This document shows, in pieces, positions 1,863 to 20,593 of a stretch of 21,001 nt of DNA (the stretch's first letter is position 1; each line of letters begins with the position of its first letter). A program made the translations under genes and the position numbers. The stretch is from a virus. Location of the stretch: positions 1-21,001 of the IMG/VR virus record IMGVR_UViG_3300005077_000011; one strand, given 5' to 3'. The notes under the pieces are model-generated. The model searched no databases, was not told where the DNA came from, and saw only the letters and a list, made by a program, of their open reading frames with translations.

Positions 1863-1933
1863 TTCCGCGCCCTAGATTCGAACTACAATTTCCTGCTTCA
1901 GAGGCAGACGTCCTACCGTTGAACGATCGCGGA
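1863..1933 (-). tRNA. tRNA-Gln(CUG)
   Basis: TCTGC-CT-CTG-AA-GCAGG; U1-A72; weak T-stem with a G-G mismatch. Confidence 0.85.
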
Positions 1934-1939
1934 ATCAAG

Positions 1940-2012
1940 TACTCTTACCGGGAGTCGAACCCAGATCCAGTGTTTCGAAGACACTCATTCTAGTCCATTA
2001 AACTATAAGAGC
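1940..2012 (-). tRNA. tRNA-Arg(UCG)
   Basis: AGTGT-CT-TCG-AA-ACACT. Confidence 0.95.
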
Positions 2013-2018
2013 ATTAAG

Positions 2019-2090
2019 TACCCCGTAGAGGAATTGAACCCCTATCCCGTCGTTAGAAGCGATGTATTCTGTCCATTGAACTAACAGGGC
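2019..2090 (-). tRNA. tRNA-Arg(UCU)
   Basis: CATCG-CT-TCT-AA-CGACG. Confidence 0.93.
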
Positions 2091-2095
2091 ATAAG

Positions 2096-2167
2096 TGAAT
2101 CCTGAAGGAGTTGAACCTTCCTAAGCCAGCTTAAAAGGCTGGTGCACTTCCGCTATGCCAAAGATCC
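2096..2167 (-). tRNA. tRNA-Lys(UUU)
   Basis: CCAGC-CT-TTT-AA-GCTGG. Confidence 0.95.
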
Positions 2168-2182
2168 TATCTATATTTGTAT

Positions 2183-2350
2183 CTATATTTTAGCATTATA
2201 TGAGCTCTTTTCTCCACATCTTTCACAGACGGGTATATCTAATTTATATGTAAATGTTCTTCCTGCTCCACTAACAGATCTTGTATAAATCCATTTATGT
2301 TGTCCAAGAATAGATTTTTTACACTTTGTTTCTTTGATTTCTTCTTTCAT
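2183..2350 (-). CDS. 55-aa zinc-binding microprotein (C..H..CxxC, DUF1660-like)
   Basis: MKEEIKETKCKKSILGQHKWIY...PVCERCGEKSSYNAKI*. Confidence 0.7.
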   Translation of the reverse strand: MKEEIKETKCKKSILGQHKWIYTRSVSGAGRTFTYKLDIPVCERCGEKSSYNAKI

Positions 2351-2360
2351 ACACGCATTG

Positions 2361-2432
2361 TGAATCCAGAAAGATTCGGACTTTCAACCGTCCGCTTAAG
2401 AGGCGGATGCTCTACCATTGAGCTATAGATCC
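2361..2432 (-). tRNA. tRNA-Lys(CUU)
   Basis: TCCGC-CT-CTT-AA-GCGGA; T-loop TCCGAAT. Confidence 0.95.
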
Positions 2433-2486
2433 AAAAAAAGGTGGCTTTACACGGTACAAAACATAAAGTAATGACGTGATCCACCT
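2433..2486 (-). other. Bulged stem-loop followed by U-tract (terminator-like or small RNA)
   Basis: AGGTGG/CCACCT and CACG/CGTG followed by a T-run. Confidence 0.35.
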
Positions 2487-2489
2487 AAG

Positions 2490-2563
2490 TGCCTATGAGA
2501 GGACTCGAACCTCTAGAACGCAGTTTCTAAAACTGCTGTCTTTGCCAATTTGACTACAAGGGC
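2490..2563 (-). tRNA. tRNA-Leu(UAG) lacking variable arm
   Basis: GCAGT-TT-TAG-AA-ACTGC; 5-nt V-region GTTCT; Leu-type D-loop; A73. Confidence 0.9.
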
Positions 2564-2567
2564 TATT

Positions 2568-2648
2568 TGAGCTACACCGCTTTTACTAATGGGACTAGAA
2601 AGCTCTTCGAAATGTCCCACAAGAGTCACAACTTTCAGCTCAGGTGAC
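2568..2648 (-). ncRNA. Unassigned pseudoknot-capable RNA (~80 nt)
   Basis: GTCAC/GTGAC, TGAGCT/AGCTCA, GTGGGAC/GTCCCAT, CTCTT/AAGAG. Confidence 0.5.
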
Positions 2649-2656
2649 GGTAAGAG

Positions 2657-2730
2657 TGCCTATAACAGGATTCGAACCTGTACTTGACCGCTTTTAAGAC
2701 GGTTGCCTCTGCCAGTTGGGCTATAAGGGC
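2657..2730 (-). tRNA. tRNA-Leu(UAA) lacking variable arm
   Basis: ACCGT-CT-TAA-AA-GCGGT; 5-nt V-region CAAGT; A73. Confidence 0.9.
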
Positions 2731-2731
2731 T

Positions 2732-2780
2732 TGGAGCCAGTGTTTTTATTTTACTGTGGTCATCCCCGGCGTCCCACATC
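2732..2780 (-). ncRNA. Small H-type pseudoknot candidate ending in CCA
   Basis: TGTGG/CCACA crossed with GCCGG/CTGGC, A-rich linker GTAAAATAAAAACA, 3' end TCCA. Confidence 0.4.
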
Positions 2781-2785
2781 TTGAG

Positions 2786-2864
2786 TGCTCATAGAAGGAT
2801 TCGAACCTTCATGCTTTCACAATAGTTTTTGAAACTATCGCGTATACCATTTCGCCATACGAGC
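2786..2864 (-). tRNA. tRNA-Leu(CAA), miniature variable arm
   Basis: ATAGT-TT-CAA-AA-ACTAT; V-arm GT-GAAA-GC (2 bp). Confidence 0.93.
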
Positions 2865-2869
2865 AATTC

Positions 2870-3069
2870 CAGGATATATAGTTGCGAACATTTCGTACCC
2901 TGAAGGGTTCGGTTAGATTTTGGTTTTCACCAAAACCCTTTGGCTGGTCGTTTTATAGGACTGAGCAATACATTCCTATGGGCCGACCTCTGCAATTGCT
3001 TTGCTCCGCCTTACGGCATTTAACTGATCTTCAGCCTTGATCAGCACCACCACAATTTAAGCCATTGTG
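2870..3069 (-). ncRNA. Unassigned multi-hairpin RNA (~200 nt) with two candidate pseudoknots
   Basis: CACAAT/ATTGTG, CTGATC/GATCAG, GCC-GTAA-GGC, GGTCG/CGACC, ATAGGA/TCCTAT, TTTTGGT-GAAA-ACCAAAA, ACCC-TTCA-GGGT. Confidence 0.6.
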
Positions 3070-3071
3070 AG

Positions 3072-3157
3072 CGGAAGAAGTGAGATTCGAACTCACGAGA
3101 ATCTTTCGACGCTGCCAATTTAGCAAACTGGCTAGGATAACCACTCCAGATTCTTCC
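3072..3157 (-). tRNA. tRNA-Ser(GCU)
   Basis: GGAAGAA acceptor, loop TT-GCT-AA, long V-arm with GAAA, G73. Confidence 0.92.
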
Positions 3158-3161
3158 AATG

Positions 3162-3247
3162 CGGAAGCTGAGGGATTCGAACCCCCAAGAGCTTGCGCCC
3201 GTGCCTGTTTTCAAGACAGGTTCCTTAACCGTTGGGATCAAGCTTCC
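3162..3247 (-). tRNA. tRNA-Ser(UGA)
   Basis: CCTGT-CT-TGA-AA-ACAGG; V-arm GGGC-GCAA-GCTC; G73. Confidence 0.95.
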
Positions 3248-3396
3248 AGATCTTTTCTTTTTTTAAAGTTCATTTTGTCAACAGTATCTCTCATCCAGTT
3301 CAAATGTAGCATCCTGCTCCATTCTCCTACAGATTTCATTGGAGAAAACATTTTTCTCCAGATTCGATGCTTGAATTTTTTCTTTTTAAAATTCAT
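3238..3396 (-). CDS. 52-aa basic microprotein; stop codon lies inside tRNA-Ser(UGA)
   Basis: MNFKKKKFKHRIWRKMFSPMKSVGEWSRMLHLNWMRDTVDKMNFKKRKDLEA*. Confidence 0.55.
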   Translation of the reverse strand: MNFKKKKFKHRIWRKMFSPMKSVGEWSRMLHLNWMRDTVDKMNFKKRKDLEA

Positions 3397-3399
3397 ATC

Positions 3400-3470
3400 T
3401 GTTAGTCTCTAAACCTTATCTGACGGTTGAAGTAAGTATCAGTTTAGAGCAACCGTAAATTATACTAACA
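3400..3470 (-). ncRNA. Nested pseudoknot directly upstream of the micro-ORF at 3396
   Basis: TGTTAGT/ACTAACA encloses crossing helices ACGGTTG/CAACCGT and CTCTAAAC/GTTTAGAG, all perfect Watson-Crick. Confidence 0.6.
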
Positions 3471-3473
3471 TTG

Positions 3474-3545
3474 TAGTCCCTAAGAGACTTGAACTCCCAA
3501 CCTTCTCTGTGTAAAAGAGTCGCTCTGCCATTGAGCTAAAGGACT
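3474..3545 (-). tRNA. tRNA-Val(UAC)
   Basis: CTCT-TT-TAC-AC-AGAG; A73. Confidence 0.93.
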
Positions 3546-3546
3546 G

Positions 3547-3617
3547 AGCATTCAAGGGGACTCGAACCCCTGACCGCTGCTTGGAAGGCAGCCGCGTTAC
3601 CACTACGCCATGAACGC
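3547..3617 (-). tRNA. tRNA-Gly(UCC)
   Basis: GCTGC-CT-TCC-AA-GCAGC; U73; 1-nt spacer to tRNA-Val. Confidence 0.95.
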
Positions 3618-3619
3618 AA

Positions 3620-3942
3620 TTAAAAAACTAACTATGGGAAAGAAGGCAATAAAAAATCCGTTTTTCCAATCAGCGGTTGTTCCAGGTTTCCCCAGTTCAA
3701 CATAAAAGGTCTAACAAGCTCCTTTACTGAACTTGCCACTCATTGAATCCTCTGCAGTAAAAATTTACATATGCCTGTAAGGTGATTGTTAAAATCTACT
3801 GGATTCGAGACCATTATCACTCTTGCGAGATCTAGGCTTACCTTTGATTATTTCGAAAGTCTAGATACTAATCACTTAGCTTCAAATGTGCACTAGCCCT
3901 GCGTAGCAGCTTATTATGCGATTCCCAAAGTTAATTTTTTAA
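3620..3942 (-). ncRNA. Large unassigned structured RNA (~320 nt)
   Basis: 21-nt imperfect terminal inverted repeat, many internal helices and GNRA loops, no long ORF, promoter immediately upstream. Confidence 0.65.
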
Positions 3943-3954
3943 TGTTCAAATACT

Positions 3955-3983
3955 ATTATATACCAACTTTTAAAATTTGTAAA
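3955..3983 (-). promoter_or_regulatory. sigma70-like promoter inside the tRNA array
   Basis: TTTACA-17 nt-TATAAT. Confidence 0.75.
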
Positions 3984-3994
3984 TATTCAATTTG

Positions 3995-4065
3995 TACCCC
4001 TACAGAGATTCGAACTCTGGCTACTACCTTGAGGGGGTAGTGTCCTGCCTCTAGACAACAGGGGC
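3995..4065 (-). tRNA. tRNA-Glu(CUC)
   Basis: CTACC-CC-CTC-AA-GGTAG (C33). Confidence 0.9.
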
Positions 4066-4073
4066 ATCAACTG

Positions 4074-4145
4074 TGGACCATAAGAGAATCGAACTCTTAC
4101 CTAAACTTTGCAAAAGTTTCGTTCTGCCATTAGCACTAATAGCCC
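4074..4145 (-). tRNA. tRNA-Ala(UGC)
   Basis: AAACT-TT-TGC-AA-AGTTT; G3-U70 identity pair. Confidence 0.95.
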
Positions 4146-4146
4146 T

Positions 4147-4212
4147 TTACTTCTTTTTGTTTTTCTTTGGTTTCTTTTTCTCGCGATTGCCGCGACGTTC
4201 TTTGTCTGCCAT
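4147..4212 (-). CDS. 21-aa Lys/Arg-rich microprotein
   Basis: MADKERRGNREKKKPKKNKKK*; fills the spacer between two tRNAs almost exactly. Confidence 0.65.
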   Translation of the reverse strand: MADKERRGNREKKKPKKNKKK

Positions 4213-4215
4213 ACG

Positions 4216-4289
4216 TAGCGTGTGCCGGATTCGGACCGGCGATCTTTTCCTTGAAAGGGAAACGAGTTGGGCCACTCCTCCAACACGCC
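4216..4289 (-). tRNA. tRNA-Glu(UUC)
   Basis: TTTCC-CT-TTC-AA-GGAAA; T-loop TCCGAAT. Confidence 0.93.
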
Positions 4290-4294
4290 TTAAG

Positions 4295-4365
4295 TTCCAC
4301 TGCTAGGAATCGAACCCAGATTAAGTGGTTCAAAGCCACCTGGCCTACCTTTAGCCGACTGTGGA
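4295..4365 (-). tRNA. tRNA-Gln(UUG)
   Basis: GGTGG-CT-TTG-AA-CCACT; U1-A72. Confidence 0.93.
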
Positions 4366-4370
4366 ATCAG

Positions 4371-4499
4371 TTATTTTTCTATAGGTTCTTTTGTAACAAA
4401 CTTACAATTTAAACACTTCCAGTTTGTTTTTGTACTTGTATCCTGTTTAATTAAATTTGTTGAGTCACATTTTGGACAATGTTTTGTTGTATCTGCCAT
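4371..4499 (-). CDS. 42-aa zinc-ribbon microprotein
   Basis: MADTTKHCPKCDSTNLIKQDTSTKTNWKCLNCKFVTKEPIEK*; two CxxC motifs. Confidence 0.75.
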   Translation of the reverse strand: MADTTKHCPKCDSTNLIKQDTSTKTNWKCLNCKFVTKEPIEK

Positions 4500-4502
4500 A
4501 AG

Positions 4503-4574
4503 TTGGTAAGACAGGATTTGAACCTGTGGCCTCTTCAATGTCAATGAAGCGTTCTTCCTCTGAACTACTCACCA
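4503..4574 (-). tRNA. tRNA-Val(GAC), first gene of the array
   Basis: CTTCA-TT-GAC-AT-TGAAG; TGGTGAG/CTTACCA acceptor. Confidence 0.93.
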
Positions 4575-6371: not shown

Positions 6372-8051
6372 ATGGAAATAAATTTTACAAAATTGTTTAC
6401 AAAATTGTTTACAAAAGCTCAAAAAGCTCAGTACGTAGTGACAAATGATCCTCGCTCTAAGGAATTAGGACAACCTATTCCAGCTCAATACTCTCCAGAG
6501 ATTAGAACTCGTTTGTATAAAACTCCTATTGTCTTCATGGCAATTAATACAATCGCAGATCAAATTGCAAAAGTGGATTGGGAAATAGTTCCTAAAAAAT
6601 CTATCTTAGAAACTTTTGGTTATGGACAAAGAGAAGGTAAATCAGTTGCAGTCTTAACAAGAAAAGAATGGGGACAGTTTACTAGAAAATATACAGGGAC
6701 AGATCGACAAAATATTTCTTCTCAAGTAAAAAGCCATATACAAAAGATTTATGATTTACTTCAAGATCCTAATGAAAATCAAGAAAATTTTTCTGCAATA
6801 ATAAAGAAAATAGCAATAGATCTTAAAATACATGATGCTGCAGGTATAGAAAAAACTCGAAATGGTCTTAATGAAATAGCAGAAATATATACAGTGCCAG
6901 GCCCATATATTAGAATGAATTATGATAAAAATGGAAAATTATTAGATCCAGCTTATTATCAACAAGATCCAAAATTTAATACAAGCAAAGTAGCAGAGTG
7001 GAATAAAGATGAGCTTATTTACTTTATGCTTAATCCTATATCTACTTCAATGTATGGTGTTTCTCCAATTGACGTAATTGCTCAAACAGTGGCTACGCTA
7101 ATAAATGCTCTTAATTATAACGGCACTTATTTTGAGTCTGCTGCTCTTCCAGAAGGATATTTTTCAATTCCTAATTTGTCAGAACAAGCTGCAAGAAGAT
7201 TAATGCAAAAATGGGAACAAGAAATTAAATCTAAAGCTCATAAAGTATTATTTATGCCAGAAGGAGCTACTTGGCATCAGTTTAGATTTTCTAACGTTGA
7301 AATGCAATGGCTTCAAGGACAGAAGTTTTATATGGAACTTGTTATGGCTGTTCTTGGTGTTACAAAACACGAATTAGGATTCACAGAAGATGTTAATAGG
7401 GCAACTGCGGATAATCAATCATTTGTATTTAAGAATAAATCTCTTCTTCCAATTCTTGGCTTAATTGCAGATAAAATTAATCAAGAGCTTATAGGAAAAT
7501 CTGGATTTGAATATGATGATGTGATGTTTGTCTTTAAAAATGTTGATCTTGCTGATAAAGAAACAATGGACAAAATTCATGATCGAGCAATCAAATCAGG
7601 AAGAATGACAATTAATGAAGCGCGAGAAGAAGCAGGCCATCGTCCTTATCCTGATTTTGGAGATGAGCCTGTCATTGCAACATCACAAGGTTTAGTGTTT
7701 TTACAGCAATATGATATGCAATTTAAAGAATATCAAGAAGAACAAGCTTGGCTTAAAGCAGAAGCTGCTAAGCAAAAAATTCCAGTAGCTGAATTGCGAA
7801 GACGAAATTCTGCAACAAAAGCAAATGAAAAACAACAACCTAATTCTCCAAACAATCCGAAAAGTCCACCAAAAGCTCCAGGCGCCGATGAACAGCCAAA
7901 CGTGGATGAAAGTAAGCCAAAAGAGAAAAGCTTTACAACTGTTGATGGGCTTAAACAGCTTGCAGAAACAATTGAAACAGCTTTAAAAGAAAATGACAAA
8001 CAGACAGAAGCTTCAAAAGACATTGGATCTAATAAAACAATTTCTCATTAA
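6372..8051 (+). CDS. Phage portal protein (HK97 family)
   Basis: VFMAINTIADQIAKVDW, YGVSPI, YFESAALPEG, VLGVTKHELG, NRATA, GRMTINEARE. Confidence 0.95.
   Translation: MEINFTKLFTKLFTKAQKAQYVVTNDPRSKELGQPIPAQYSPEIRTRLYKTPIVFMAINTIADQIAKVDWEIVPKKSILETFGYGQREGKSVAVLTRKEWGQFTRKYTGTDRQNISSQVKSHIQKIYDLLQDPNENQENFSAIIKKIAIDLKIHDAAGIEKTRNGLNEIAEIYTVPGPYIRMNYDKNGKLLDPAYYQQDPKFNTSKVAEWNKDELIYFMLNPISTSMYGVSPIDVIAQTVATLINALNYNGTYFESAALPEGYFSIPNLSEQAARRLMQKWEQEIKSKAHKVLFMPEGATWHQFRFSNVEMQWLQGQKFYMELVMAVLGVTKHELGFTEDVNRATADNQSFVFKNKSLLPILGLIADKINQELIGKSGFEYDDVMFVFKNVDLADKETMDKIHDRAIKSGRMTINEAREEAGHRPYPDFGDEPVIATSQGLVFLQQYDMQFKEYQEEQAWLKAEAAKQKIPVAELRRRNSATKANEKQQPNSPNNPKSPPKAPGADEQPNVDESKPKEKSFTTVDGLKQLAETIETALKENDKQTEASKDIGSNKTISH
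6384..6430 (+). repeat. In-frame tandem repeats at the portal 5' end
   Basis: TTTACAAAATTG x2.75 (FTKL-FTKL-FTK), then AAAAGCTCA x2. Confidence 0.85.
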
Positions 8052-10426: not shown

Positions 10427-10618
10427 ATGATAGTAGAAATAAAAACAAATAAAACTTTAGATCCTAGACAAAGTGTTGTTATAATTAATGGTGTAGAGTA
10501 CAAAAATATTGAAAGTCTACAGCTTCGTCTGATAAAAGATGGGCGAGGAGAACTAACTATACAACATAGCTCTGGGTATTTAGAGGCTTACAAAGCAGAG
10601 GTGAACAATGATATATGA
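10427..10618 (+). CDS. Hypothetical beta-rich protein
   Basis: 63 aa; ATGA overlap with the protease gene. Confidence 0.7.
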   Translation: MIVEIKTNKTLDPRQSVVIINGVEYKNIESLQLRLIKDGRGELTIQHSSGYLEAYKAEVNNDI

Positions 10619-11646
10619 ACTATAACACATTCAAATTTTATACAAACACTTTAAAAGCTGTTAAAAGTGATGATAATTCTCGATACATTGTTGGTATTGC
10701 TTCTTCAACAGCTCTTGATCGTGATGGAGATAGAATGTCCGAAGCTGCTCTTCAAACAATGAAATCAACAGCAGAAGCAAATCTTACAATCTTTACAAAT
10801 CATGAATACAAAGTACCAGATGATCTTTTTGGATCTTGTACAGAAGCATTAATTAAAGCTAAAAAAGACGAACAACCTATTGTTGTTAAGAGCGAAGATA
10901 ATATGACAGAAATTGCTACTTTTAGTCCTCAAAATATGGAGATTAAAATTAAAGTCGTTTCTGATGCTGTTAATCCAAAAGCAGGACAAATATATAAAGC
11001 TATTGAAGAAGGTGTCAATTTAGGATTTTCAATAGGAGGAGTTGTACGAAAAGCAGTTAAGGTATTTGATGATGTAGCAAAAAAAGCTTATAATCTTATT
11101 GATGCTATTGAATTGTACGAAATATCGATCGTCTCAATTCCGGCAAATCCAGATGCTATGAATCTCGCAATTGCAAAATCACTTAAAACAGACAAAGACG
11201 AAAAAGTCAATAAAGAAGAAATTGTTGAAATTGTCAAGAAAATTGAAAATGCTCAACCAAAAGAAGTAGAATATACCCTTGAAGGCACTCATAATTTTTT
11301 GCTTGGAGTTCTTAAAGGAATGTATGATGAAACTTATGGAGCAGAACCAAACAAACTAACTCAAGAACAGATGGATGAAATAGAAGAAGAAGATATGCAG
11401 AGAGCAAAAGCACAAGCAGAAAATATTCTTATGTGTAATGGTATTGCAGTAAAAGTTGATGAAACAGATGATCACGTAATTCATCTTAGATCTCATTCTT
11501 ATTGTATGCAAGACTGCATGTCAATGGGCAAAGATGTAACAACACACGCAAATCATATTCAAAATCATCTTAAAAAATTAAAAAAAGAAATTGCAGAAGA
11601 TGAAGCCACAGAAGACACTGCAAATATGGGAAAAGTAAGCATATGA
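10615..11646 (+). CDS. HK97-type prohead protease with C-terminal His-rich extension
   Basis: GIASSTALDRDGDRM, FTNHE, GFSIGG, LYEISIVSIPANPDA. Confidence 0.93.
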   Translation: MNYNTFKFYTNTLKAVKSDDNSRYIVGIASSTALDRDGDRMSEAALQTMKSTAEANLTIFTNHEYKVPDDLFGSCTEALIKAKKDEQPIVVKSEDNMTEIATFSPQNMEIKIKVVSDAVNPKAGQIYKAIEEGVNLGFSIGGVVRKAVKVFDDVAKKAYNLIDAIELYEISIVSIPANPDAMNLAIAKSLKTDKDEKVNKEEIVEIVKKIENAQPKEVEYTLEGTHNFLLGVLKGMYDETYGAEPNKLTQEQMDEIEEEDMQRAKAQAENILMCNGIAVKVDETDDHVIHLRSHSYCMQDCMSMGKDVTTHANHIQNHLKKLKKEIAEDEATEDTANMGKVSI

Positions 11647-11928: not shown

Positions 11929-12384
11929 ATGAAAACAAACGAAGAAGTATTAAAAGACGTTAAAGAAACGCTTGATGCTATTGACGCATTAAAAACTGCT
12001 GCAACAGAAAAGAAAGAAGAGAAAGTTGAAGAAAAAAAAGAAGTAGTAGAAGAGAAAAAAGAAGAAGTTGTAGAGGAAAAGAAAGAAGAAGTTGAAGCAG
12101 TTGTTGAAGACGAAAAAGAAGAGGTCAAACCAGAAGAGGAAAAAGAAGAAGTGAAAGAAGAGGAAAAAGTCGAAGAAAAGAGTGTTGACCTTACTGAAGT
12201 CTTAAACGGAATTAAAGATATTGCTGCAGTCGTTGGAAAACTTTCTGAAGATGTAGAAGCTCTTAAAGCTGCAAAAACAGCAAAAAAGAGTGTTGTAGTT
12301 GAAGACGAAAAAATAGAACAGAAGAAAGAAATGACTGAAGAAGAAAAGCTTAGAAAACAAGCTCAAATAATCTTTGGAAAATAA
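11929..12384 (+). CDS. Acidic capsid scaffolding protein
   Basis: E/K/V low-complexity repeats, coiled coil, position directly before the capsid gene. Confidence 0.75.
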   Translation: MKTNEEVLKDVKETLDAIDALKTAATEKKEEKVEEKKEVVEEKKEEVVEEKKEEVEAVVEDEKEEVKPEEEKEEVKEEEKVEEKSVDLTEVLNGIKDIAAVVGKLSEDVEALKAAKTAKKSVVVEDEKIEQKKEMTEEEKLRKQAQIIFGK

Positions 12385-12392
12385 AAAACAAA

Positions 12393-12452
12393 AGCCGCTT
12401 ATCTGCGGCTGCTAGAGAATATAAATTCTTTAGCACTTGCAGATAACTGCAA
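12393..12452 (+). promoter_or_regulatory. Three-hairpin structure in the capsid 5' leader
   Basis: AGCCGC/GCGGCT, GCTAGAGAAT/ATTCTTTAGC, TTGCAG/CTGCAA. Confidence 0.6.
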
Positions 12453-12499
12453 TAGAAAATAAGAAAATATTCACATAAATGAGGAGGTGAAAAAATAAT

Positions 12500-13441
12500 A
12501 TGGATAAAGTTGACGTAAAAAAAGCGCTTGGAGGTGTTAATACTTCTGATGCAACAGGTGGAGATTTTATTCCTACAGAACTTGCCGCAGAATTAGTTGA
12601 GTATATCAAATGGAATTCAGTTGGTAGAAATCTTTGGGATCAAGTCATAATGCCTACTCCTACATTCCTTATTCCTAAACTCACAGGTGTTAACTCAATC
12701 TACTATGTAGGTGAAGGTTCACAACCAACACAATCAGGAATGGCAACAGATCAAGTTACTCTTACAGCTAAAAAGCTTATGGGTCTTTTGACAGTTGACT
12801 CAGAAATCGATGAAGATTCAAAAATCGCATTGATGCCTTTGATTAAACAGGATTTTGGTACAGAAATTGGTCTTGCAGAAACTGATGCATTCTTTAATGG
12901 AGATACATCATTTGCTGTTTCAGATCATCCACGAAAAGCTTTTAATGGTCTTAGAGCTCTTGCAGCAGGCACAGCAGTCGATGCAGCAGGTTCAAGAATA
13001 ACTCTTAAGCATCTTAATCAAGGTCTTGTAAATCTTGGTAGACACGGACAAAATCCACAGATGATCGATGTTTTTGGTGCTCCTATAGTCATTGGAGAAC
13101 TTAGAAAACTTTACGCAGACTTCGATAAGTACACAGTGTTTAATCAAGGTGCACTTAAAACAGGTCAGGTCGGAGCTATCTGGGGAATGAATGTGTACAC
13201 AGTAGGTCTTCTTCCAACAGATCTTACCTATGGTGGATCTACAGGAAATGGATATACTGAAGCTCTTCTTGTAAATAGAAGAACTCCTATCATTGGAGAC
13301 CGAAGAGCGATCAAATTTAAAACATTTGATCAAATCTGGACAGATCAAACTCTTGTCGTTCCTTCAGAACGTATTGCGTTTGCTGTTAGATGGACGGATG
13401 CTATCGTTAAAATCACAAACTTGGAAACAACACTTAGCTAA
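12500..13441 (+). CDS. Major capsid protein (HK97 fold)
   Basis: GGDFIPTELA, YVGEG, VTLTAKKL, ETDAFFNGD, IWGMNV, ERIAFAV; SD GGAGGTGA. Confidence 0.95.
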   Translation: MDKVDVKKALGGVNTSDATGGDFIPTELAAELVEYIKWNSVGRNLWDQVIMPTPTFLIPKLTGVNSIYYVGEGSQPTQSGMATDQVTLTAKKLMGLLTVDSEIDEDSKIALMPLIKQDFGTEIGLAETDAFFNGDTSFAVSDHPRKAFNGLRALAAGTAVDAAGSRITLKHLNQGLVNLGRHGQNPQMIDVFGAPIVIGELRKLYADFDKYTVFNQGALKTGQVGAIWGMNVYTVGLLPTDLTYGGSTGNGYTEALLVNRRTPIIGDRRAIKFKTFDQIWTDQTLVVPSERIAFAVRWTDAIVKITNLETTLS

Positions 13442-13472
13442 GTAATTGGCTAACACTAAAAAAGGAGCACTC

Positions 13473-14429
13473 ATGTCTGAAGAATTAATTCGGATTAGAC
13501 ACTTGGATAGTCCGAATATTACAGTTTTTATAGAAGGAAAACAAATTAACATTCGTAATTATGAAGCTTTGATACCTAGAAGCGACGCAAAAGCAATAGT
13601 ATCAGGGCCATATGGTTATGAATTAGTTGGTATATACGATGATTTCATCGTATATGTTAACAAAATTGACATCCAAACAAAAACTTTCAGACCAATGAGT
13701 GCTCTTGATAATAGTGTATTAGTAGGTACTTCATTAGCTGGTAGTAAATTATATGCTTGGGAAAAATATTCTCAAGCTCTTCTTACTTTAAAAGGCAAAG
13801 AAAAACTTCACTTACTCTTCACAATAGATGATTCAAAAGCCTCTTGGAAACAACAAATTCATGATTGGGCAGAAACTAATATTGACAAATTTTATAATAT
13901 AACTATTATTGAATGGGACTCAGATAAAGAAATGGCGTGGAATCGAGTATTCAAAATTACAGTAGGTCGACAACTTATCTTTAATTTTGCAAGGACTATT
14001 GAAAATATAACTCATATCTTTTTTATAGATTCAGACAATATAGTTCCAGAACATGCTTTTGAGACACTCTATTCACTTGAGAAGCCTGCAGTAGCAGGAT
14101 TGTATAACTTTAAATCAGTTGTTTCAGGAGGGCCAGTTGTATTTAACGGATATGGCGATAAAAATTGGCCGCCAACATGTCTAGGCAAGCAATTAGTAGA
14201 AACAAAACAAGATTCAGGTTTAATTGAATGTGACTGGACTGGAGCAGGATGTCTCATGATAAGCAGAAAAATATTTGAAAAATATAATTTTGATTGGTCT
14301 AGGTGGATACAACGGAACGGAGAAGACGCTTGGATATGTTTATGCGCTCAAAAAGAAACAGGTCAAAAACTTTTAGTAGATACTTCAGTAAAATGCGGAC
14401 ATTTAGATGATAGAGGTCAAATATGGTAG
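13473..14429 (+). CDS. GT-A (GT2-like) glycosyltransferase with extra N-terminal domain
   Basis: FFIDSD, DWTGAGCLMISR, GEDAWIC, VDTSVKCGH; SD AAGGAG before ATG 13473. Confidence 0.88.
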   Translation: MSEELIRIRHLDSPNITVFIEGKQINIRNYEALIPRSDAKAIVSGPYGYELVGIYDDFIVYVNKIDIQTKTFRPMSALDNSVLVGTSLAGSKLYAWEKYSQALLTLKGKEKLHLLFTIDDSKASWKQQIHDWAETNIDKFYNITIIEWDSDKEMAWNRVFKITVGRQLIFNFARTIENITHIFFIDSDNIVPEHAFETLYSLEKPAVAGLYNFKSVVSGGPVVFNGYGDKNWPPTCLGKQLVETKQDSGLIECDWTGAGCLMISRKIFEKYNFDWSRWIQRNGEDAWICLCAQKETGQKLLVDTSVKCGHLDDRGQIW

Positions 14430-15649
14430 ATGTAAAAATACGTCATCGGGATCATTTGAATATTGTTACTTTTATTGACGGAAAACAAATAAATATTAGA
14501 AATCATGAGGGAATTGTGCCTCTTGATCTTGCTTCAAAATTAATAGAATCTCCTTTTGGATATGAATGGGGAGCTCCTGTTGAACCTTTCAATAAAGAAA
14601 CTTGGACAAAAACTAACCGTAAAATTGTTTGGAATCATATTATGCCTTATTATGAAGGATATGGATATGTAGGACAAATGATGGTTTGGGCGCTTAAAGA
14701 ATTAGGAATAGATATTTCTATTTTTTATAAACCTGAAATGTATTATCTCAAAAGAGACATTATGGATCTTATTTTTAAAGAACGTCAATACGATTGTTGG
14801 GGAATATGGCATCATTTTTGGATGAAGCCTGGAATGTTACCACATGAGAAAAAAGCCATGTATACTATGTGGGAAAGTACTCAACTTCTTCCAGGATGGG
14901 CAAATGCGTGCAATGAAGTAAATATGATATTTGTTCCTTGCGAAGAAGATGTTAAAATCTTTAAAACAAATGGAGTAAAAGTTCCTATTAGAGTTTTGCA
15001 TCATGGAGTAGATCAAGAATTTTATTATTATCGACCAAAAGTAAAAAGAGATAAGTTTATTGTTGGAACAATAGGAAGTTTAGTCCCTCGAAAAGATCCT
15101 GAGCTTCTTATAAAAGCTTTTTTAGATGAATTTCGAAATGAAAAAGATGTTTTGCTATATATGAAAGACACAAACGAAGAAACAGATCTTTCAAATAAAT
15201 ACAAAGATAATGAAAAAATACAATTTAATGGAAAAAAAATATCACCTTTAGAATTAGGAGATTTATTAGCTTCTTTTGATATTGCTGTTTTTCCTTCTCA
15301 TGGAGAAGGCTTTGGACTCGGCGGACTTCAAGCTATGGGCGTTGGAACAACATGCATATGCACAAACTGGGGTGGGTTCAAAGAATATCTAAACTCAGAG
15401 TATAATTTTACTCTTGACTGTAAATTAGTTGATATAAAAAATATTGCCTCTAATAATACTTTTTATTCAGGGCAATGGGCTCAAGCAAGCTATGAACATC
15501 TTAGAAGTTTGCTTAGATATGCTTATGAACACAAAGATGAAATTCATAAAAAAGGGGAAAAAGCAGCTCAATGGGTAAAAGAATTTTGGACGTGGAAGCG
15601 ATGTGGTCAACAATTAATTAATGCAATTGATGAATACGAAAGAATATGA
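14423..15649 (+). CDS. GT-B (GT4-like) glycosyltransferase with the same N-terminal domain
   Basis: GYG, HGVD, PRK, FPSHGEGFGLGGLQAMGVG, TNWGG, FWTW. Confidence 0.92.
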   Translation: MVDVKIRHRDHLNIVTFIDGKQINIRNHEGIVPLDLASKLIESPFGYEWGAPVEPFNKETWTKTNRKIVWNHIMPYYEGYGYVGQMMVWALKELGIDISIFYKPEMYYLKRDIMDLIFKERQYDCWGIWHHFWMKPGMLPHEKKAMYTMWESTQLLPGWANACNEVNMIFVPCEEDVKIFKTNGVKVPIRVLHHGVDQEFYYYRPKVKRDKFIVGTIGSLVPRKDPELLIKAFLDEFRNEKDVLLYMKDTNEETDLSNKYKDNEKIQFNGKKISPLELGDLLASFDIAVFPSHGEGFGLGGLQAMGVGTTCICTNWGGFKEYLNSEYNFTLDCKLVDIKNIASNNTFYSGQWAQASYEHLRSLLRYAYEHKDEIHKKGEKAAQWVKEFWTWKRCGQQLINAIDEYERI

Positions 15650-16368
15650 ATACAATATGTGCAAACATGATATTAGGAGAAAAACCTGAACCATTTTTAG
15701 AATATTCTTTGAATTCGATAAAGTGGGTAGATGAACTTGTAATTGTTAATACAGGATCAAAAGACAATCTTAATATAAATATTGCAAAGTCTATTGTTCC
15801 TCATGCAAAATATTTAGATTTTTTTAACTCAAATTTGCCATTTACTTTTTCTAACGCAAGAAATTATGCACTAGACAACTCATCTGCATATTGGATTTTG
15901 TGGATTGATGCAGACGAAGTTCATTATAATCATCTAGAGAGAATATTAAGAGAAAGTCTTTCTTGGACACACTATGATGGCTTTCAATTTTGTTTTTATC
16001 ATTTTTTATTAGACGTATTTCATTATCAACATAAAGAATATAGAAAAAATGTATTTAAGCGAATAGGAAGAAGATGGAACGGAGACGTTCATGAACAAGT
16101 TTACCCTTTAGAAAATACTTTAAGTCTTGATTATTTTTATCATCATTACGGATATGTCAAACCACAACATTTAATTTATGAAAATTGGAAATTGTATTGG
16201 AGTCTAAATCCAGAAGAAAAATATAAACTTAATGAAAATAGAAATCCAAATGATATAATCTCTGACAGAGTCACTGTTGCTCATGAATATACAGGTTTAT
16301 ATCCAGAAGTTATTCAAGAATATATTAAAAAACAAAAACCTATTGTAAAAAATTATAATTTTCTTTAA
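15646..16368 (+). CDS. GT2 glycosyltransferase
   Basis: VDELVIVNTGSKD, FSNARN, WILWIDADE, GDVHEQV, HHYGY. Confidence 0.92.
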   Translation: MNTICANMILGEKPEPFLEYSLNSIKWVDELVIVNTGSKDNLNINIAKSIVPHAKYLDFFNSNLPFTFSNARNYALDNSSAYWILWIDADEVHYNHLERILRESLSWTHYDGFQFCFYHFLLDVFHYQHKEYRKNVFKRIGRRWNGDVHEQVYPLENTLSLDYFYHHYGYVKPQHLIYENWKLYWSLNPEEKYKLNENRNPNDIISDRVTVAHEYTGLYPEVIQEYIKKQKPIVKNYNFL

Positions 16369-16369
16369 T

Positions 16370-17029
16370 ATGAAAAAAATCGGAATAATACTTACTACAT
16401 TTAATAATTTAGAAATGACAAAAGTGTGTTTGCATTCATTGTTTGAAAATACAACAAATTATGAGTTAATTGTTGTTGATAACAATTCTACTGACGGCAC
16501 ACAAGATTGGATAAAAAAGCAAAATATTCAATTGATAGAATTAAAAGAATGGAAAGGAGTATCTAGTGCTATCAATCAAGGAATACGCTTCTTTTTTAAT
16601 AAAGAGAATGAAAAAACTTTTTATGACATTTGCTGGATTCATAATGATATGACTTTTTTTCCAAAATGGTTAAATGCTTTGCAAGAATATCTTGATAATC
16701 ATCCTGAATGTGGTCGTGTAGCTTCACATAATATGCGTGATCCATTAGCTCCTGAAAGGCCGGGAAATGAATTGCCATTTCTTATAAGAGGTGAATGCTT
16801 TAAAAAAATAGGAATGTTTGATGAACGTTTCAAAGGAGCAGCTGGCAAAGAAGATTGGGATTTCAATAATAGACTCTTAGATAATGGTTGGAAAATTATG
16901 ATTACTCCTGAATCAAAAGTATTTCATAAAGGCGCAGGAACAAGATCTGGACTTATGCCTAGAGAATGGGAAGAACATAATAATTGGTTATATTGGTCAA
17001 AGTGGGGAACAAATGAACCTAAAGTATAA
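16370..17029 (+). CDS. GT2 glycosyltransferase
   Basis: IVVDNNSTDGT, HND, GMFDERF, EDWDF. Confidence 0.92.
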   Translation: MKKIGIILTTFNNLEMTKVCLHSLFENTTNYELIVVDNNSTDGTQDWIKKQNIQLIELKEWKGVSSAINQGIRFFFNKENEKTFYDICWIHNDMTFFPKWLNALQEYLDNHPECGRVASHNMRDPLAPERPGNELPFLIRGECFKKIGMFDERFKGAAGKEDWDFNNRLLDNGWKIMITPESKVFHKGAGTRSGLMPREWEEHNNWLYWSKWGTNEPKV

Positions 17030-17780
17030 TATATCAGCAGTAATTCCTGTGTTAGGAAATTGGAATTACACAGAAAAATGCTTGACTTCTCTCTTTTCAA
17101 AGAGTGAATTCATAGATGAAATTATTGTTATAGATAATTCTAATGATAAAGATTCTACAAGAGCAATTATTAAAAACGGATATCCGTGTTCAATTTATGC
17201 TCCAGGAAGAAATCTTGGAGTCGGTCAATCATGGGATGCTGGAATAAAAATTGCAAAGAATAATATTATATGTGTTATAAATAATGACGTAGAAATTATT
17301 ACTGAAAAATGGGATACAATAATAATGACAGAATGGCAAAAGCATGAAGATGCAATAGTATTTTGTCCTTGGCCTGCAAGTCATGAGACTGAAGATCTAG
17401 CTCATATGGTTGATCCTTTAAAAGGTCTCAATGGAAGTTGTTTTTTTGTTGACAGAAATAGTCTACAATTAACTGACAACTATAAATTATTAGGACACTA
17501 TATTGATCCAATTTATCATTTAGCATATTGGGAAGATTGTGATTTGCTAGTTCAAGTTAGAAAATTAGGAAAAGAAAGTTATGTCACATCAAAAGTAAAA
17601 ACGGTTCACTATAGTAATAAAACAGCTGGACCACTGCTTCCAAGTAATAAAGGAATGAATAATCCTTATTGGAGTAATCTAGATAAATTTAATAAAAAAT
17701 ATGGAGTAAATATATGGGACTATTTCAAAGTGTTTATGAGTAATGTTCTTGATGAAAATTCAAACGAAAGGCTTATATGA
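17013..17780 (+). CDS. GT2 glycosyltransferase
   Basis: SAVIP, IIVIDN, NLGV, INND, AYWEDCD. Confidence 0.9.
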   Translation: MNLKYNISAVIPVLGNWNYTEKCLTSLFSKSEFIDEIIVIDNSNDKDSTRAIIKNGYPCSIYAPGRNLGVGQSWDAGIKIAKNNIICVINNDVEIITEKWDTIIMTEWQKHEDAIVFCPWPASHETEDLAHMVDPLKGLNGSCFFVDRNSLQLTDNYKLLGHYIDPIYHLAYWEDCDLLVQVRKLGKESYVTSKVKTVHYSNKTAGPLLPSNKGMNNPYWSNLDKFNKKYGVNIWDYFKVFMSNVLDENSNERLI

Positions 17781-17926
17781 AACATTTTAAAACAACTAAA
17801 AAAGGAATGTATCAAGATGAAAGCTTCAAAAGACAAAGAACAATACAAATGTTAAGAAAAATGAAAGAAGAAAGAAAACGCACAAAGACAGAAATGAGGA
17901 ATTATGAAAACAGCGATAATTTATGA
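17777..17926 (+). CDS. 49-aa basic hypothetical protein (not in ORF track)
   Basis: ATGA-coupled to the upstream GT; MKHFKTTKKGMYQDESFKRQR...; overlaps the next gene. Confidence 0.55.
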   Translation: MKHFKTTKKGMYQDESFKRQRTIQMLRKMKEERKRTKTEMRNYENSDNL

Positions 17927-18788
17927 TCTAGGAACACCATTTACAACAGGAGTATATTTTGATAGAGCTTTGAGAGAACTTGGTATAACTGTAGACAGGT
18001 TTGATCATAATAATGTCACTACAGTACCGGAGGGATATGGTTTATACTTTATTATTGATTCAGGACCACAATATGCTATTCCAGAATGGAAATCTGGACC
18101 TTCAATTTATTATAGCATTGATACTCATCTTGATTTTGAACATAGATTTGAAATGGCTAAAACAGCAGGCATTCCTGTTATGGCACAATATTCGTGTGGT
18201 GCTAAAAGGGCTACAGATGCCGGATTAGAAACTTTATGGCTTCCTCTTGGTTGTGACCCTTGGATTCATCAAGATTATCAAGTAGAAAGAAATTTAGATA
18301 TAGCATTTGTAGGTCACTTGTATGAAGATGATCCATGGAGACAAACTATTCGTTCAAAATTAATTTCTCACGGATTTAATGAAAACAAAATCTTTATTGG
18401 AGAAGCTACAAAAGAGGACATGGGACAAATATACTCAAGAGCAAAAATTGTTCTTAATGCTTCAGTAAGAAATAATCGACAAGATATTAGTATGCGTTTT
18501 TTTGAAGCCATGTCTAGTGGAGCATATCTTCTTACTCAAAAATTACTTCATGATGATGCTAACAAAATTATAGACCCAAAGCTTTATAGTACATTCGAAA
18601 ATGATGAAGAAATGTTTGTCAAAATTGATGATATTCTTAAAAATTATGTTGTGTATCATGATGTTGCGGAAAGAGCAAAACTTTTCATAAGAACATTTCA
18701 TACTTATGCAAAACATATAGAGAGTCTATTTAGAAATATAACAATGAATAAAAAAGAAAGAAATCAATTTACAGAATTAATAAAATGA
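17904..18788 (+). CDS. GT-B glycosyltransferase (CgeB/Glyco_trans_1_2-like)
   Basis: WLPLGCDP, DIAFVG, YSRAKIVLN, MRFFEAMSSG, HTY. Confidence 0.9.
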   Translation: MKTAIIYDLGTPFTTGVYFDRALRELGITVDRFDHNNVTTVPEGYGLYFIIDSGPQYAIPEWKSGPSIYYSIDTHLDFEHRFEMAKTAGIPVMAQYSCGAKRATDAGLETLWLPLGCDPWIHQDYQVERNLDIAFVGHLYEDDPWRQTIRSKLISHGFNENKIFIGEATKEDMGQIYSRAKIVLNASVRNNRQDISMRFFEAMSSGAYLLTQKLLHDDANKIIDPKLYSTFENDEEMFVKIDDILKNYVVYHDVAERAKLFIRTFHTYAKHIESLFRNITMNKKERNQFTELIK

Positions 18789-19525
18789 AAAATATTGCTT
18801 ATATTATAAAAACACATAATGAGTTGCCATATCTGCAGCTTATGCTATGGAGCCTCAAATACAATAATCCAAACATGTGGAACAGTTCAAATATATATAT
18901 ATTTGCGAATAATTGTAATGACGGCACAAAACAATGGTGTGATAAGAATAATCTTTGGTGCAAAGAAGTAAATTTTCCAGGGCTTTATTCTCTTTGGAAT
19001 CATGCTGCACAAATAACAAATGAACAATTTATTGTATTTTCAGCCTCTGACTTTGTCTTAGCTCCAGGTTTTTGGAATAAAATTATCAAGCAAACAGTAG
19101 AAAATAAAGACAAATTTTTCCATTTTACAGGAACTTGTTTAGATAATGGAGTAAGTTATGGTCATCAGGATGAACCTATACGAAGATGGTATGTAAGAAA
19201 TTGTGGAGATAATTGGCAAGAATTTGATTATGATAAATTTATTAATTACACAAAAGAATTTGAAAATGATAATGGAATATTAGAAGGAGTAACACAGTAT
19301 TGTCCTTTTATAACAACGCGAGAGCATTATGATTTGCTTGGAGGATTTAATTTAGCTCAAGGAGACTATCCTTCTGATGTAGACGAAACATTTGTAAGAA
19401 CAGGGCGAGAAAAAGGTAGACCTCCTTGTATAGTAAGAGGAGCATGCTTTTATCATTTTGGTAAGAAGTCTTTACTAAGACGAGATACAATTAATTATGA
19501 TTGGAGTGAAATAGACAACATATGA
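18785..19525 (+). CDS. GT2-like glycosyltransferase
   Basis: NNCNDGT, WNHAA, ASDFV, LGGF, YHFG. Confidence 0.85.
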   Translation: MKNIAYIIKTHNELPYLQLMLWSLKYNNPNMWNSSNIYIFANNCNDGTKQWCDKNNLWCKEVNFPGLYSLWNHAAQITNEQFIVFSASDFVLAPGFWNKIIKQTVENKDKFFHFTGTCLDNGVSYGHQDEPIRRWYVRNCGDNWQEFDYDKFINYTKEFENDNGILEGVTQYCPFITTREHYDLLGGFNLAQGDYPSDVDETFVRTGREKGRPPCIVRGACFYHFGKKSLLRRDTINYDWSEIDNI

Positions 19526-20064
19526 TAACATCTAGAAATTCAAATAGAGATATTAGCAAGTTAACAAAGCTTCACTTAGGCTGTGGAGGAGATTTTAAAG
19601 AAAATTATATTAACGTGGATTTATATGATCTTCGTGTTTGTGATGTTCAAGACGATATGATTACTTTAGAAAAATTTCCTGATAATTTTGCATCTGAAAT
19701 ATTTCATATGCACATAATGGAACATATAAATTATGATGAAGGCCATAAGGCTATAAAAACTTGGTATAGAGTAATGGCACATGGTGGAAAATTAGAATTT
19801 GAAACTCCAGATGCAGAAGAAACTTTTAGAATGTTTTTAGAAATGGATTATCACCAAAGATGGGAACAAGTAGCTAATTTATGGCAAGGATATAAGATGC
19901 AAATCTGGGGAACTCAGGATGCCCCCGGAATGCAACACTATATTCTATATGACAAAGAAAAAATGTACAAAATGCTTGAGGAAGCAGGATTCAAAAATAT
20001 ATCAGTAGTCAACATTAATGATCCCTGGCTCCGCGAAAACATGAGAGTCGAAGCTTATAAATAA
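19522..20064 (+). CDS. Class I SAM-dependent methyltransferase (type 11-like)
   Basis: KLHLGCG, YINVD, HIMEHI, GGKLEFETPD, LEEAGF. Confidence 0.92.
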   Translation: MITSRNSNRDISKLTKLHLGCGGDFKENYINVDLYDLRVCDVQDDMITLEKFPDNFASEIFHMHIMEHINYDEGHKAIKTWYRVMAHGGKLEFETPDAEETFRMFLEMDYHQRWEQVANLWQGYKMQIWGTQDAPGMQHYILYDKEKMYKMLEEAGFKNISVVNINDPWLRENMRVEAYK

Positions 20065-20065: not shown

Positions 20066-20593
20066 ATGACTCCATGGAATAAAGGTAAAACTGGTGTATA
20101 CTCTAAAGAAACTTTATTAAGAAAAAGTTTAGCTACTAAAGGAATACCAAAGAGTTTAGAAACTAGAAAAAGAATGAGTGAGGGCTCTAAAGGAAAAATA
20201 ATGTCAAAAGAAGCTAGATTAAAAATGAGTCTAGCTAAAGCTGGAAAGAAAAGAAGACCTTTATCTTTAGAAATTAAAAAGAAAATAAGCATAACATTAA
20301 AAATTAGAAATAATCCTAATTTTTCTGAAGATACTATAGAATATAAAATAAACACAGGCTCTGTAGAATATTTTCATTTTAGAAAACAAGTTTTAATTAG
20401 AGATGAATACACGTGTCAAAGATGCGGAAATAAAGAAAATCTAGAAGTTCATCATATAAAGCCTAAAGCTCAATTTCCTGAATTTCTCTGTACAATAGAA
20501 AATGGAATAACTTTATGTGATAAATGTCACTGCAAAGTGGATAAAATTAGATCTTATTTTGGCACAAGAAATTACAAAAAATTATATAAATAA
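20066..20593 (+). CDS. NUMOD3-repeat HNH homing endonuclease
   Basis: PWNKG, SxETRKRMS-type repeats, RDEYTCQRCG, LEVHHIKP, NGITLCDKCH. Confidence 0.92.
   Translation: MTPWNKGKTGVYSKETLLRKSLATKGIPKSLETRKRMSEGSKGKIMSKEARLKMSLAKAGKKRRPLSLEIKKKISITLKIRNNPNFSEDTIEYKINTGSVEYFHFRKQVLIRDEYTCQRCGNKENLEVHHIKPKAQFPEFLCTIENGITLCDKCHCKVDKIRSYFGTRNYKKLYK

Follow-up and report, generated by a model that had tools for sequence, protein, structure and literature searches.

Why would a tailed bacterial phage place a long run of sugar-transferring enzymes directly behind its capsid gene, where head-tail connector genes are normally found? This question is raised by the first 21 kb (21,001 nucleotides, hereafter the window) of IMG/VR record IMGVR_UViG_3300005077_000011, an 89,947-bp contig from an uncultured freshwater phage with an estimated completeness of 96% and a GC content of approximately 30%. 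The gene for its major capsid protein (MCP) is followed by eight enzyme genes, herein called A through H, which encode seven glycosyltransferases (GTs) and one S-adenosylmethionine (SAM)-dependent methyltransferase (MT). On balance, we favor the view that this cassette serves the cytoplasmic glycosylation of virion proteins, on which it would build a complex and possibly methylated glycan.

The cassette is tightly joined to the capsid gene. The MCP stop codon (13439-13441) is followed by a 31-nt spacer that carries an AAGGAG ribosome-binding site, and the ATG of gene A is located at 13473. A terminator-like hairpin was sought in this spacer, and none was found. The eight enzyme genes (13473-20064) then overlap or abut, with overlaps of 7 nt (A/B), 4 nt (B/C), 17 nt (D/E), 4 nt (F/G), and 4 nt (G/H), and with gaps of 1 nt between C and D and between H and a downstream homing endonuclease gene. 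A putative mini-open reading frame (mini-ORF) links E to F; its ATG overlaps the E stop codon (ATGA), and its 3′ end overlaps the start of F by 23 nt. These genes are probably co-transcribed. A first-pass annotation of the window, made without database searches, had already described the 31-nt distance to the capsid stop, the overlapping or abutting genes, and the lack of an obvious terminator, all of which withstood closer inspection. It had also noted that the enzymes occupy the slot of the head-tail connector genes. Indeed, the head-closure, Neck1, tail-terminator, and major-tail genes first appear at 37386-39232, and the capsid-to-connector block thus measures approximately 24 kb. The gene island that begins with the cassette runs to about 36 kb. 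The extent given at that time, 12500-20064, needs adjustment: the block is real, but position 12500 is the start of the capsid gene, the cassette begins at 13473, and the island continues past 20064.

Fold assignments for the encoded proteins come from Pfam searches and, for gene A, from structure prediction. Genes C, D, E, and G have matches to PF00535 (GT2) above the cut-off. Gene A has no Pfam match, and its AlphaFold2 (AF2) model adopts a GT-A fold with a predicted local distance difference test (pLDDT) score of 91.7. The top Foldseek neighbors of this model are COLGALT1 (E 2e-11), LH3, Mnn9, Mimivirus R699, TarP, and STIV A197, and a profile of A searched against the PDB recovers STIV A197 (5e-11) and Mnn9 (7e-11). 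The nearest viral structural neighbors of A are giant-virus GTs. Residues 80-318 of A correspond to a widespread family of proteins of 200-250 amino acids (aa), with 911 representatives at E<=1e-3. Motif residues in A are R166, the DxD motif D186-S-D188, and E284-D285, and the orthologs show no variation in either the DxD or the ED motif.

Gene B is matched by PF00534 (2.4e-15) and PF13692 (1.8e-14) and has 17 ortholog clusters at 60-80% identity. When B was used in tblastn, GTs of Streptomyces, Rhodococcus, and Arthrobacter phages were found at 27-28% identity. Its homologs in Streptomyces BE-cluster phages are located upstream of ribonucleotide reductase, endolysin, and portal genes, a context that is uninformative regarding the acceptor. 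The best solved relative of C is Listeria GmaR (E 1.8e-6), which is known as the flagellin O-GlcNAc transferase of that genus. The DADE motif of C is conserved in four orthologs, as are, among the orthologs of D and E, the motifs VVDNxS, HND, and EDWD of the former and NND and WEDxD of the latter. Protein F is called GT-B-like solely because of its match to PF13524, and its 294 aa make it short for a GT-B enzyme. No sequence relatives of F, G, or H were found in the PDB, and their predicted folds derive from Pfam. H is related to the MT domain of MT-GT2 fusion proteins whose genes adjoin capsid genes in distant phages. When NCBIfam was searched for specific enzyme names, all matches were far below the cut-off. 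The fold assignments of A through H uphold the originally proposed count of five GT-A enzymes, two GT-B or GT-B-like enzymes, and one SAM-dependent MT.

All cassette enzymes are acidic to neutral (pI 5.3-6.5). No membrane segments were detected in the cassette proteins, for which the maximum Kyte-Doolittle value is 1.17. Because no 19-residue window exceeds the threshold of 1.2, the cassette has no membrane anchor, polytopic flippase, or polymerase. Likewise, the block holds no sugar-nucleotide synthesis gene, and the Epimerase and NTP_transferase families are absent across the whole 89,947-bp genome. The first-pass annotation had listed these absences for the block, and the hydrophobicity scan and the genome-wide family search agree with it.

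Proteins A and B, despite their different folds, open with the same domain of approximately 50 residues (51% identity, E 1e-12). This module is conserved in four phages, and H10, N15-I16, P46, G48-Y49-E50, and F58 are invariant over eight sequences. Four strands and one helix are predicted. A hidden Markov model of the module found no further copy, whether elsewhere in the genome or among 87 retrieved loci, and a search of the ESM Atlas gave no usable match. When the module was modeled in isolation with AF2 (pLDDT 73), no fold matched it above noise; the best Z was 4.5. Prophage YqbF and the C-terminal domain of lambda gpFI were considered as relatives and set aside because their similarity is at noise level only. 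Perhaps the module docks the enzymes to an acceptor or pairs A with B.

A synteny survey, one of the checks suggested with the first-pass annotation, revealed that the order MCP-A-B-C-D-E is kept in four diverged genomes: the present phage (G000), a complete 94-kb relative (G001, locus L001), and loci L002 and L094. Across these genomes, the MCPs are 84-90% identical and the GTs are 47-71% identical. The distal genes are less constant. F is present in three of the four genomes, following E in L002 and L094, and is absent from G001. In that relative, F, G, H, and the HNH endonuclease gene are replaced by genes for a Methyltransf_25 protein, a CE4 polysaccharide deacetylase, a GT2 enzyme, and Cpn10/GroES (L001 15261-17257), and a conserved gene for a 294-aa GT-B-like protein lies downstream of this replacement module. 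Thus, with the A-E order kept, motifs invariant, and distal genes swapped, the locus consists of a conserved core and an exchangeable tailoring module. Judged by these sequence comparisons, the cassette is under purifying selection; at 50-70% protein identity, its synonymous sites are saturated. Its GC content equals that of the rest of the phage.

Beyond these four genomes, B orthologs and MCP relatives come from records of equal size in six further cases (24,380; 77,986; 18,275; 28,239; 10,163; 94,156), which suggests that the two genes share a contig in each. The MCP itself is recognized by PF05065 (E 1.1e-20) and phrog_10 (major head protein) and has relatives that are 74-94% identical, and alignment reveals that its C-terminal TLS is retained in close relatives. 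The closest capsid proteins of cultured phages are only 24-33% identical over partial length, and a metagenome scan with the MCP recovered only three short loci. A megablast search with the cassette found no match in 50,697 phage records.

A capsid-linked MT recurs in a separate setting. Of 52 distant HK97 loci whose downstream sequence was long enough, 14 encode an MT-domain protein of approximately 390-400 aa no more than 4 kb downstream of the capsid gene, and several of the scanned proteins have a weak C-terminal match of GT2 type. In three loci that were inspected, the MT(-GT2) gene lies between the capsid gene, usually accompanied by a gene for an S/T-rich protein of approximately 150 aa, and a connector-like gene. 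This recurrence suggests that capsid-linked glycosylation is widespread and has gone undescribed outside of actinophages. The fusion loci fall within L018-L055 and L084 (e.g., L037 10733-12348 and L019 3313-5529) and include high-GC phages.

The cassette is only the first part of the wider island, which in total carries about 10 GT-like genes and three MT genes. The six GT2-type matches of the genome all lie between 13.8 and 28.6 kb. Interleaved with the enzyme genes are genes for several fiber-like proteins, the largest of which encodes an acidic protein of 2,428 aa. This protein is 23% Ser plus Thr and 9% Asn, with repeats of the ENISxTEN/SISISES type and about 70 N-x-S/T sequons, and it has no Pfam match. 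An unrelated 1,465-aa S/T/N-rich protein occupies its slot in G001. Its gene is followed by one for a conserved 387-aa protein, after which the connector genes begin. Among the other island members, gp21744 has orthologs at 60-81% identity in about 23 clusters. A weak Pfam match to a GT4 N-terminal domain is seen in 8 of 22 members, and a gp21744 profile found no match in the PDB. We saw no similarity between gp21744 and F, nor between gp22821 and the 173-aa protein in the same slot of G001. The intrinsic terminator 3′ of gp22821, within the region 22635-23498, is the first clear one in the intergenic gaps that were viewed. This island, wired into the head module, is a conserved trait of a clade of freshwater phages with 90-kb genomes.

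How might such a pathway operate? We propose that it is expressed together with the late structural genes, and that soluble GT-A and GT-B enzymes draw on host nucleotide sugars to build an oligosaccharide stepwise, prior to or in the course of assembly, on at least one virion protein. SAM-dependent MTs would then modify the glycan. A and B might act first, either by starting the pathway or by docking it to the acceptor, and C, D, and E would add to a conserved core. Genes distal to these (F, G, and H in this phage) would serve as an exchangeable tailoring module, such that the glycan differs between related phages; in G001, this module would employ a different MT, the CE4 deacetylase, and a GT2 enzyme. 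Candidate acceptors are the 313-aa MCP and the S/T/N-rich proteins gp22821, gp25276, gp26649, and the 2,428-aa repeat protein.

Several observations favor virion proteins as the target. First, the genes sit within the head module, in close coupling with the capsid gene. Second, protein glycosyltransferases are among the nearest solved relatives of A (collagen GalT, Mnn9, and STIV A197) and of C (GmaR). Third, genes for enzymes and for fiber-like proteins are intermixed along the island, and fourth, actinobacteriophages provide a precedent. Further support comes from the conserved MCP-A-E order, from the soluble and acidic nature of the enzymes, from the recurrence of MT(-GT2) genes in an independent lineage, and from the presence of a separate β-GT-like gene in the DNA-modification cluster of this phage. 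The first-pass annotation had likewise proposed a virion glycan coat, and by position, conservation, and enzyme relatives this remains the best-supported reading, with the capsid protein as one candidate acceptor.

Other points weigh against it. The sequence does not point directly to any one acceptor. The MCP is compact, without a Ser/Thr-rich extension, and its end (ETTLS) differs from that of the major tail protein gp38708 (SGQANP). The S/T/N-rich fiber-like proteins of the island are at least equal candidates. S/T-richness is itself weak evidence because it is common to most structural proteins of the phage; we discarded it as a specific indicator given that the tail and connector proteins are equally rich. 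The enzyme folds and the absence of transmembrane segments do not discriminate between targets, because members of the GT2 and GT4 families whose substrates are lipid-linked or wall polymers can be soluble or peripheral as well. Gene orientation is silent on timing because nearly the whole genome is encoded on one strand. In addition, the R, DxD, and ED residues of the A family resemble the R...DDD...EDY/F signature of DNA-modifying phage GT-A enzymes, TarP is among the structural neighbors of both A and D, and a homolog of the Methyltransf_24 enzyme (MT24) in a spring-water phage sits among DNA genes.

If the fiber-like proteins were the acceptors, then the entire island might specify a glycosylated fiber coat resembling those of giant viruses. 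About 10 GTs and three MTs would be encoded together with their acceptors (hypervariable, S/T/N-rich head fibers, among them the 2,428-aa repeat protein), the A/B module would dock the enzymes, and swapped tailoring genes would define a strain 'serotype'. We offer this more specific scheme tentatively and consider it possible but doubtful.

Both DNA hypermodification and host-surface conversion had been named in the first-pass annotation as alternatives to a virion target, and both have lost ground given the separate β-GT-like gene, the position in the head module, and the lack of a membrane component. It is unlikely, in our judgment, that the cassette instead remodels a host envelope glycoconjugate during infection, such as teichoic acid, some other wall polymer, or a lipid-linked precursor of O-antigen or capsule. 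Such an activity could block superinfection or keep progeny from sticking to debris, and it would make use of host lipid carriers, flippases, and polymerases. GT2 and GT4 enzymes of so generic a type usually belong to polysaccharide pathways, and the weak NCBIfam matches, all far below the cut-off, are to exopolysaccharide, teichuronic-acid, and rhamnosyl transferases. Consistent with a wall polymer as target, TarP, the structural neighbor of A and D noted above, is a prophage wall-teichoic-acid GlcNAc transferase. The variable module of G001 includes a CE4 'polysaccharide deacetylase', and B orthologs carry the JGI label 'glycosyltransferase involved in cell wall biosynthesis'. However, the capsid-to-connector region, with its tight capsid coupling, is a poor site for conversion genes in an apparently lytic 90-kb phage, and the same island encodes fiber-like proteins. 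The assigned genes include none for an initiating phosphoglycosyl transferase, and the cassette encodes no GtrA/GtrB-type or other membrane protein. Gtr-type lysogenic O-antigen conversion employs a GtrA flippase, a membrane-anchored bactoprenol GT (GtrB), and a polytopic, serotype-specific GT, whereas the cassette proteins have no hydrophobic segment; D has only N-terminal, GT2-level similarity to GtrB PHROGs.

A sugar on DNA is a still less probable target. Here the cassette would act downstream of thymidylate-synthase (ThyS)-like, kinase, and β-GT-like genes and would extend a sugar on hydroxymethylated pyrimidines into a long methylated glycan. A cluster at 53.7-60.3 kb includes genes for a ThyS-like candidate hydroxymethylase, a nucleotide kinase, a dUTPase_2/MazG-like enzyme, and a UDG-family protein, and therefore acceptor bases probably do exist. 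One to three sugars are known to be placed on 5-hydroxymethylcytosine by phage enzymes of the GT-A and GT-B types (bioRxiv 10.1101/2023.12.21.572611). The MT24 family bears the PHROG label 'DNA methyltransferase', in keeping with the homolog beside DNA genes, and the resemblance of R166, D186xD188, and E284D285 to the DNA-modifying signature points the same way, although inverting GT-A enzymes carry such motifs in general. The cluster, however, has a GT candidate of its own. The 371-aa protein gp57584 (57584-58699), encoded between the nucleotide kinase and UDG/ThyS-like genes, resembles T4 β-glucosyltransferase, with an ESM Atlas feature score of 0.97 and a template-modeling score of 0.72 to PF09198 clusters; searches of Pfam, PHROG, and PDB sequences gave no match to it. 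Its location weakens the case for DNA as the target of the cassette, since hypermodification genes reportedly cluster with base-synthesis genes, as gp57584 does, whereas the cassette lies with the head genes at a distance of 35 kb. Moreover, no known DNA glycan exceeds three sugars, against about 10 GT-like genes here, the cassette enzymes are all acidic, none matches PF09198 (T4-Gluco-transf), and C is nearest to a flagellin glycosyltransferase. Least probable of all, we believe, is that the genes form a mosaic of independent accessory genes (morons) with no common pathway, or that they glycosylate something other than the virion, for example a small molecule or a host protein. Variation in the distal part, the insertion of homing endonucleases, and the lack of specific family assignments for most enzymes would fit a mosaic. 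Nevertheless, the A-E order and orientation are conserved in four diverged genomes, the catalytic motifs are intact, the genes are translationally coupled, the GC content matches that of the phage, and all GT2-type genes lie in one island.

To our knowledge, phage virion glycosylation has been established experimentally only for a few actinobacteriophages, which use two to four enzymes. Freeman et al. (2023) are said to have described it in mycobacteriophages Che8, Corndog/cluster O, and Myrna. Three reports that cite this work (PMC11600133, PMC11256854, PMC12619734) describe mycobacteriophage virions glycosylated by phage GTs on capsid and tail-tube subunits, with shielding of the particle. 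The present cassette is similar to this system in that its GTs are soluble and phage-encoded, and cluster O phages also pair three GT genes with that for an O-methyltransferase to modify capsid and tail-tube proteins (PMC11600133). Rhodococcus phages with GT and MT genes are likewise suspected of virion glycosylation (PMC13313380). The differences are substantial. Rather than two to four GTs, this phage has seven GTs and one MT in the block and about 10 GT-like proteins and three MTs in the island, and it is a low-GC freshwater phage, unlike the mycobacteriophages. Its GT genes lie in the capsid-to-connector block, whereas those of cluster F1 (Che8-type) phages are near the 3′ end of the genome (PMC11256854); the first-pass annotation was therefore mistaken in placing the GT genes of Che8 among structural genes. 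Furthermore, mycobacteriophage capsid and tail-tube subunits reportedly have a common C-terminal acceptor tail, as cited in PMC12619734, and no such common tail was seen in the MCP and major tail protein of the present phage. A tblastn search with B, C, and MT24 against the 50,697 phage records found no match in a Mycobacterium phage; the other genes were not searched.

Parallels can also be drawn with viruses of eukaryotes and with bacteria. Chlorovirus PBCV-1, for its capsid protein Vp54 (A064R and other GTs, with a methyltransferase domain), and Mimivirus, for its fibrils, use many cytoplasmic GT-A and GT-B enzymes and MTs to make complex, partly methylated glycans. Such autonomous glycosylation by giant viruses is the subject of two reports (PMC4691112, PMC7019647). 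The viral neighbors of A, which include Mimivirus R699 in the PDB, fit this likeness, but ours is a tailed bacterial phage in which no sugar-nucleotide synthesis genes were found and for which there is no sequence-level orthology. In bacteria, Listeria GmaR, GtfA/B of serine-rich-repeat (SRR) adhesins, and spore-surface CgeB-type enzymes are soluble GTs that modify Ser/Thr-rich surface proteins prior to their export or assembly. The similarity of C to GmaR and of F to CgeB-type PF13524 is distant (E 1e-6, domain level). Neither flagellin nor an SRR adhesin occurs here; a virion protein would take the role of acceptor. The T4 α- and β-GTs and the enzymes described by Pyle et al. (bioRxiv 10.1101/2023.12.21.572611) are similar to the cassette in that GT-A and GT-B enzymes with generic GT-A motifs occur in a hydroxymethyl-pyrimidine genome. 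However, phage DNA GT genes reportedly cluster with hydroxymethyl-base genes, whereas the cassette (13.5-20 kb) is distant from the 53.7-60.3 kb cluster, and its enzyme number and acidic pI values are a poor fit.

If our preferred reading of virion-protein glycosylation is right, then this is a known kind of modification in a much larger version that, judged by the searches with B, C, and MT24, is not a sequence-level member of the mycobacteriophage system. Its distinctive traits are its size, its conserved core with a variable module, the N-terminal module with which A and B both begin, and the giant repeat proteins encoded alongside. Should the enzymes act on the virion, the glycans of some phages would match those of chloroviruses and mimiviruses in complexity, and the variable module would diversify the particle surface in the manner of O-antigen loci in bacteria. 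There would be consequences for adsorption, stability, and grazing or immune recognition, as well as for the reading of phage proteomes and cryo-electron microscopy maps. The small N-terminal module common to two enzymes of unrelated folds, together with the candidate acceptors, provides a part of this proposal that can be tested.

Table. Features of the capsid-to-connector region and neighboring genes (positions in the 89,947-bp genome, of which the window forms the start).
Feature	Position	Strand	Basis
tRNA array, 29 genes, most amino acids covered	160-4574	-	
Portal	6372-8051	+	
Prohead protease	10615-11646	+	
Scaffold-like protein, 151 aa, E/K-rich, acidic, between protease and capsid genes	11929-12384	+	Position and composition
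MCP, HK97-fold, 313 aa, C terminus ...NLETTLS	12500-13441	+	PF05065, phrog_10
A, GT-A glycosyltransferase with ~50-aa N-terminal domain common with B	13473-14429	+	AF2, Foldseek, profile
B, GT4-type GT-B glycosyltransferase with A-type N-terminal domain	14423-15649	+	PF00534, PF13692
C, GT2 (GT-A) glycosyltransferase, DADE motif	15646-16368	+	PF00535 5.2e-10
D, GT2 (GT-A) glycosyltransferase	16370-17029	+	PF00535 1.7e-19
E, GT2 (GT-A) glycosyltransferase	17013-17780	+	PF00535 2.9e-17
Putative mini-ORF, 49 codons, very basic, pI 10.2, bridges E and F	17777-17926	+	Sequence reading
F, GT-B-like (Glyco_trans_1_2/CgeB-type), 294 aa	17904-18788	+	PF13524 6.5e-15
G, GT2 (GT-A) glycosyltransferase	18785-19525	+	PF00535 2.6e-7, 31.2 bits vs cut-off 23.3
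H, class I SAM-dependent methyltransferase, 180 aa	19522-20064	+	PF13489 7.7e-8, PF08241
NUMOD3 and HNH homing endonuclease	20066-20593	+	PF01844, PF07460
Small ORF, 116 aa, DYDG HAD-like motif	20807-21157	+	By eye
Methyltransf_24 enzyme (MT24)	21157-21747	+	Pfam
gp21744, 296 aa, tentative GT-B-like	21744-22634	+	Weak GT4 N-domain similarity
gp22821, S/T-rich, 152 aa, GAGGTGA ribosome-binding site, own terminator	22821-23279	+	
Third methyltransferase-like protein	23499-24116	+	Motif by eye; match to MT-bearing protein
Second A-family GT-A	24125-24949	+	Profile E 1.8e-18
gp25276 and gp26649, paralogous 'virion structural' proteins	25276-26427, 26649-27833	+	PHROG 10356, weak BclA_C match
Third A-family GT-A, with DDD motif	28131-28817	+	
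Acidic repeat protein, 2,428 aa, directly after A-family GT-A gene	28810-36096	+	

The NUMOD3-HNH gene downstream of H is a mobile insert that lies outside the pathway. A homolog with 37% identity is located between D and E in L094 (4255-4821), and from these two positions the cassette appears to be a landing zone for homing endonucleases.

Plus-strand genes run from 5.6 kb onward. The 151-aa protein encoded between the protease and capsid genes is probably scaffold-like, given its position and composition; Pfam and PHROG searches gave no match to it, and a homolog is present in L001. Its gene is preceded by a strong Shine-Dalgarno sequence, GGGAGGTGA. The gap that separates the scaffold-like gene from the capsid gene (12385-12499) contains a GC-rich hairpin (AGCCGC-TTATCT-GCGGCT). 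The strong Shine-Dalgarno sequence GAGGTGA is common to the scaffold, MCP, gp22821, and major-tail genes.

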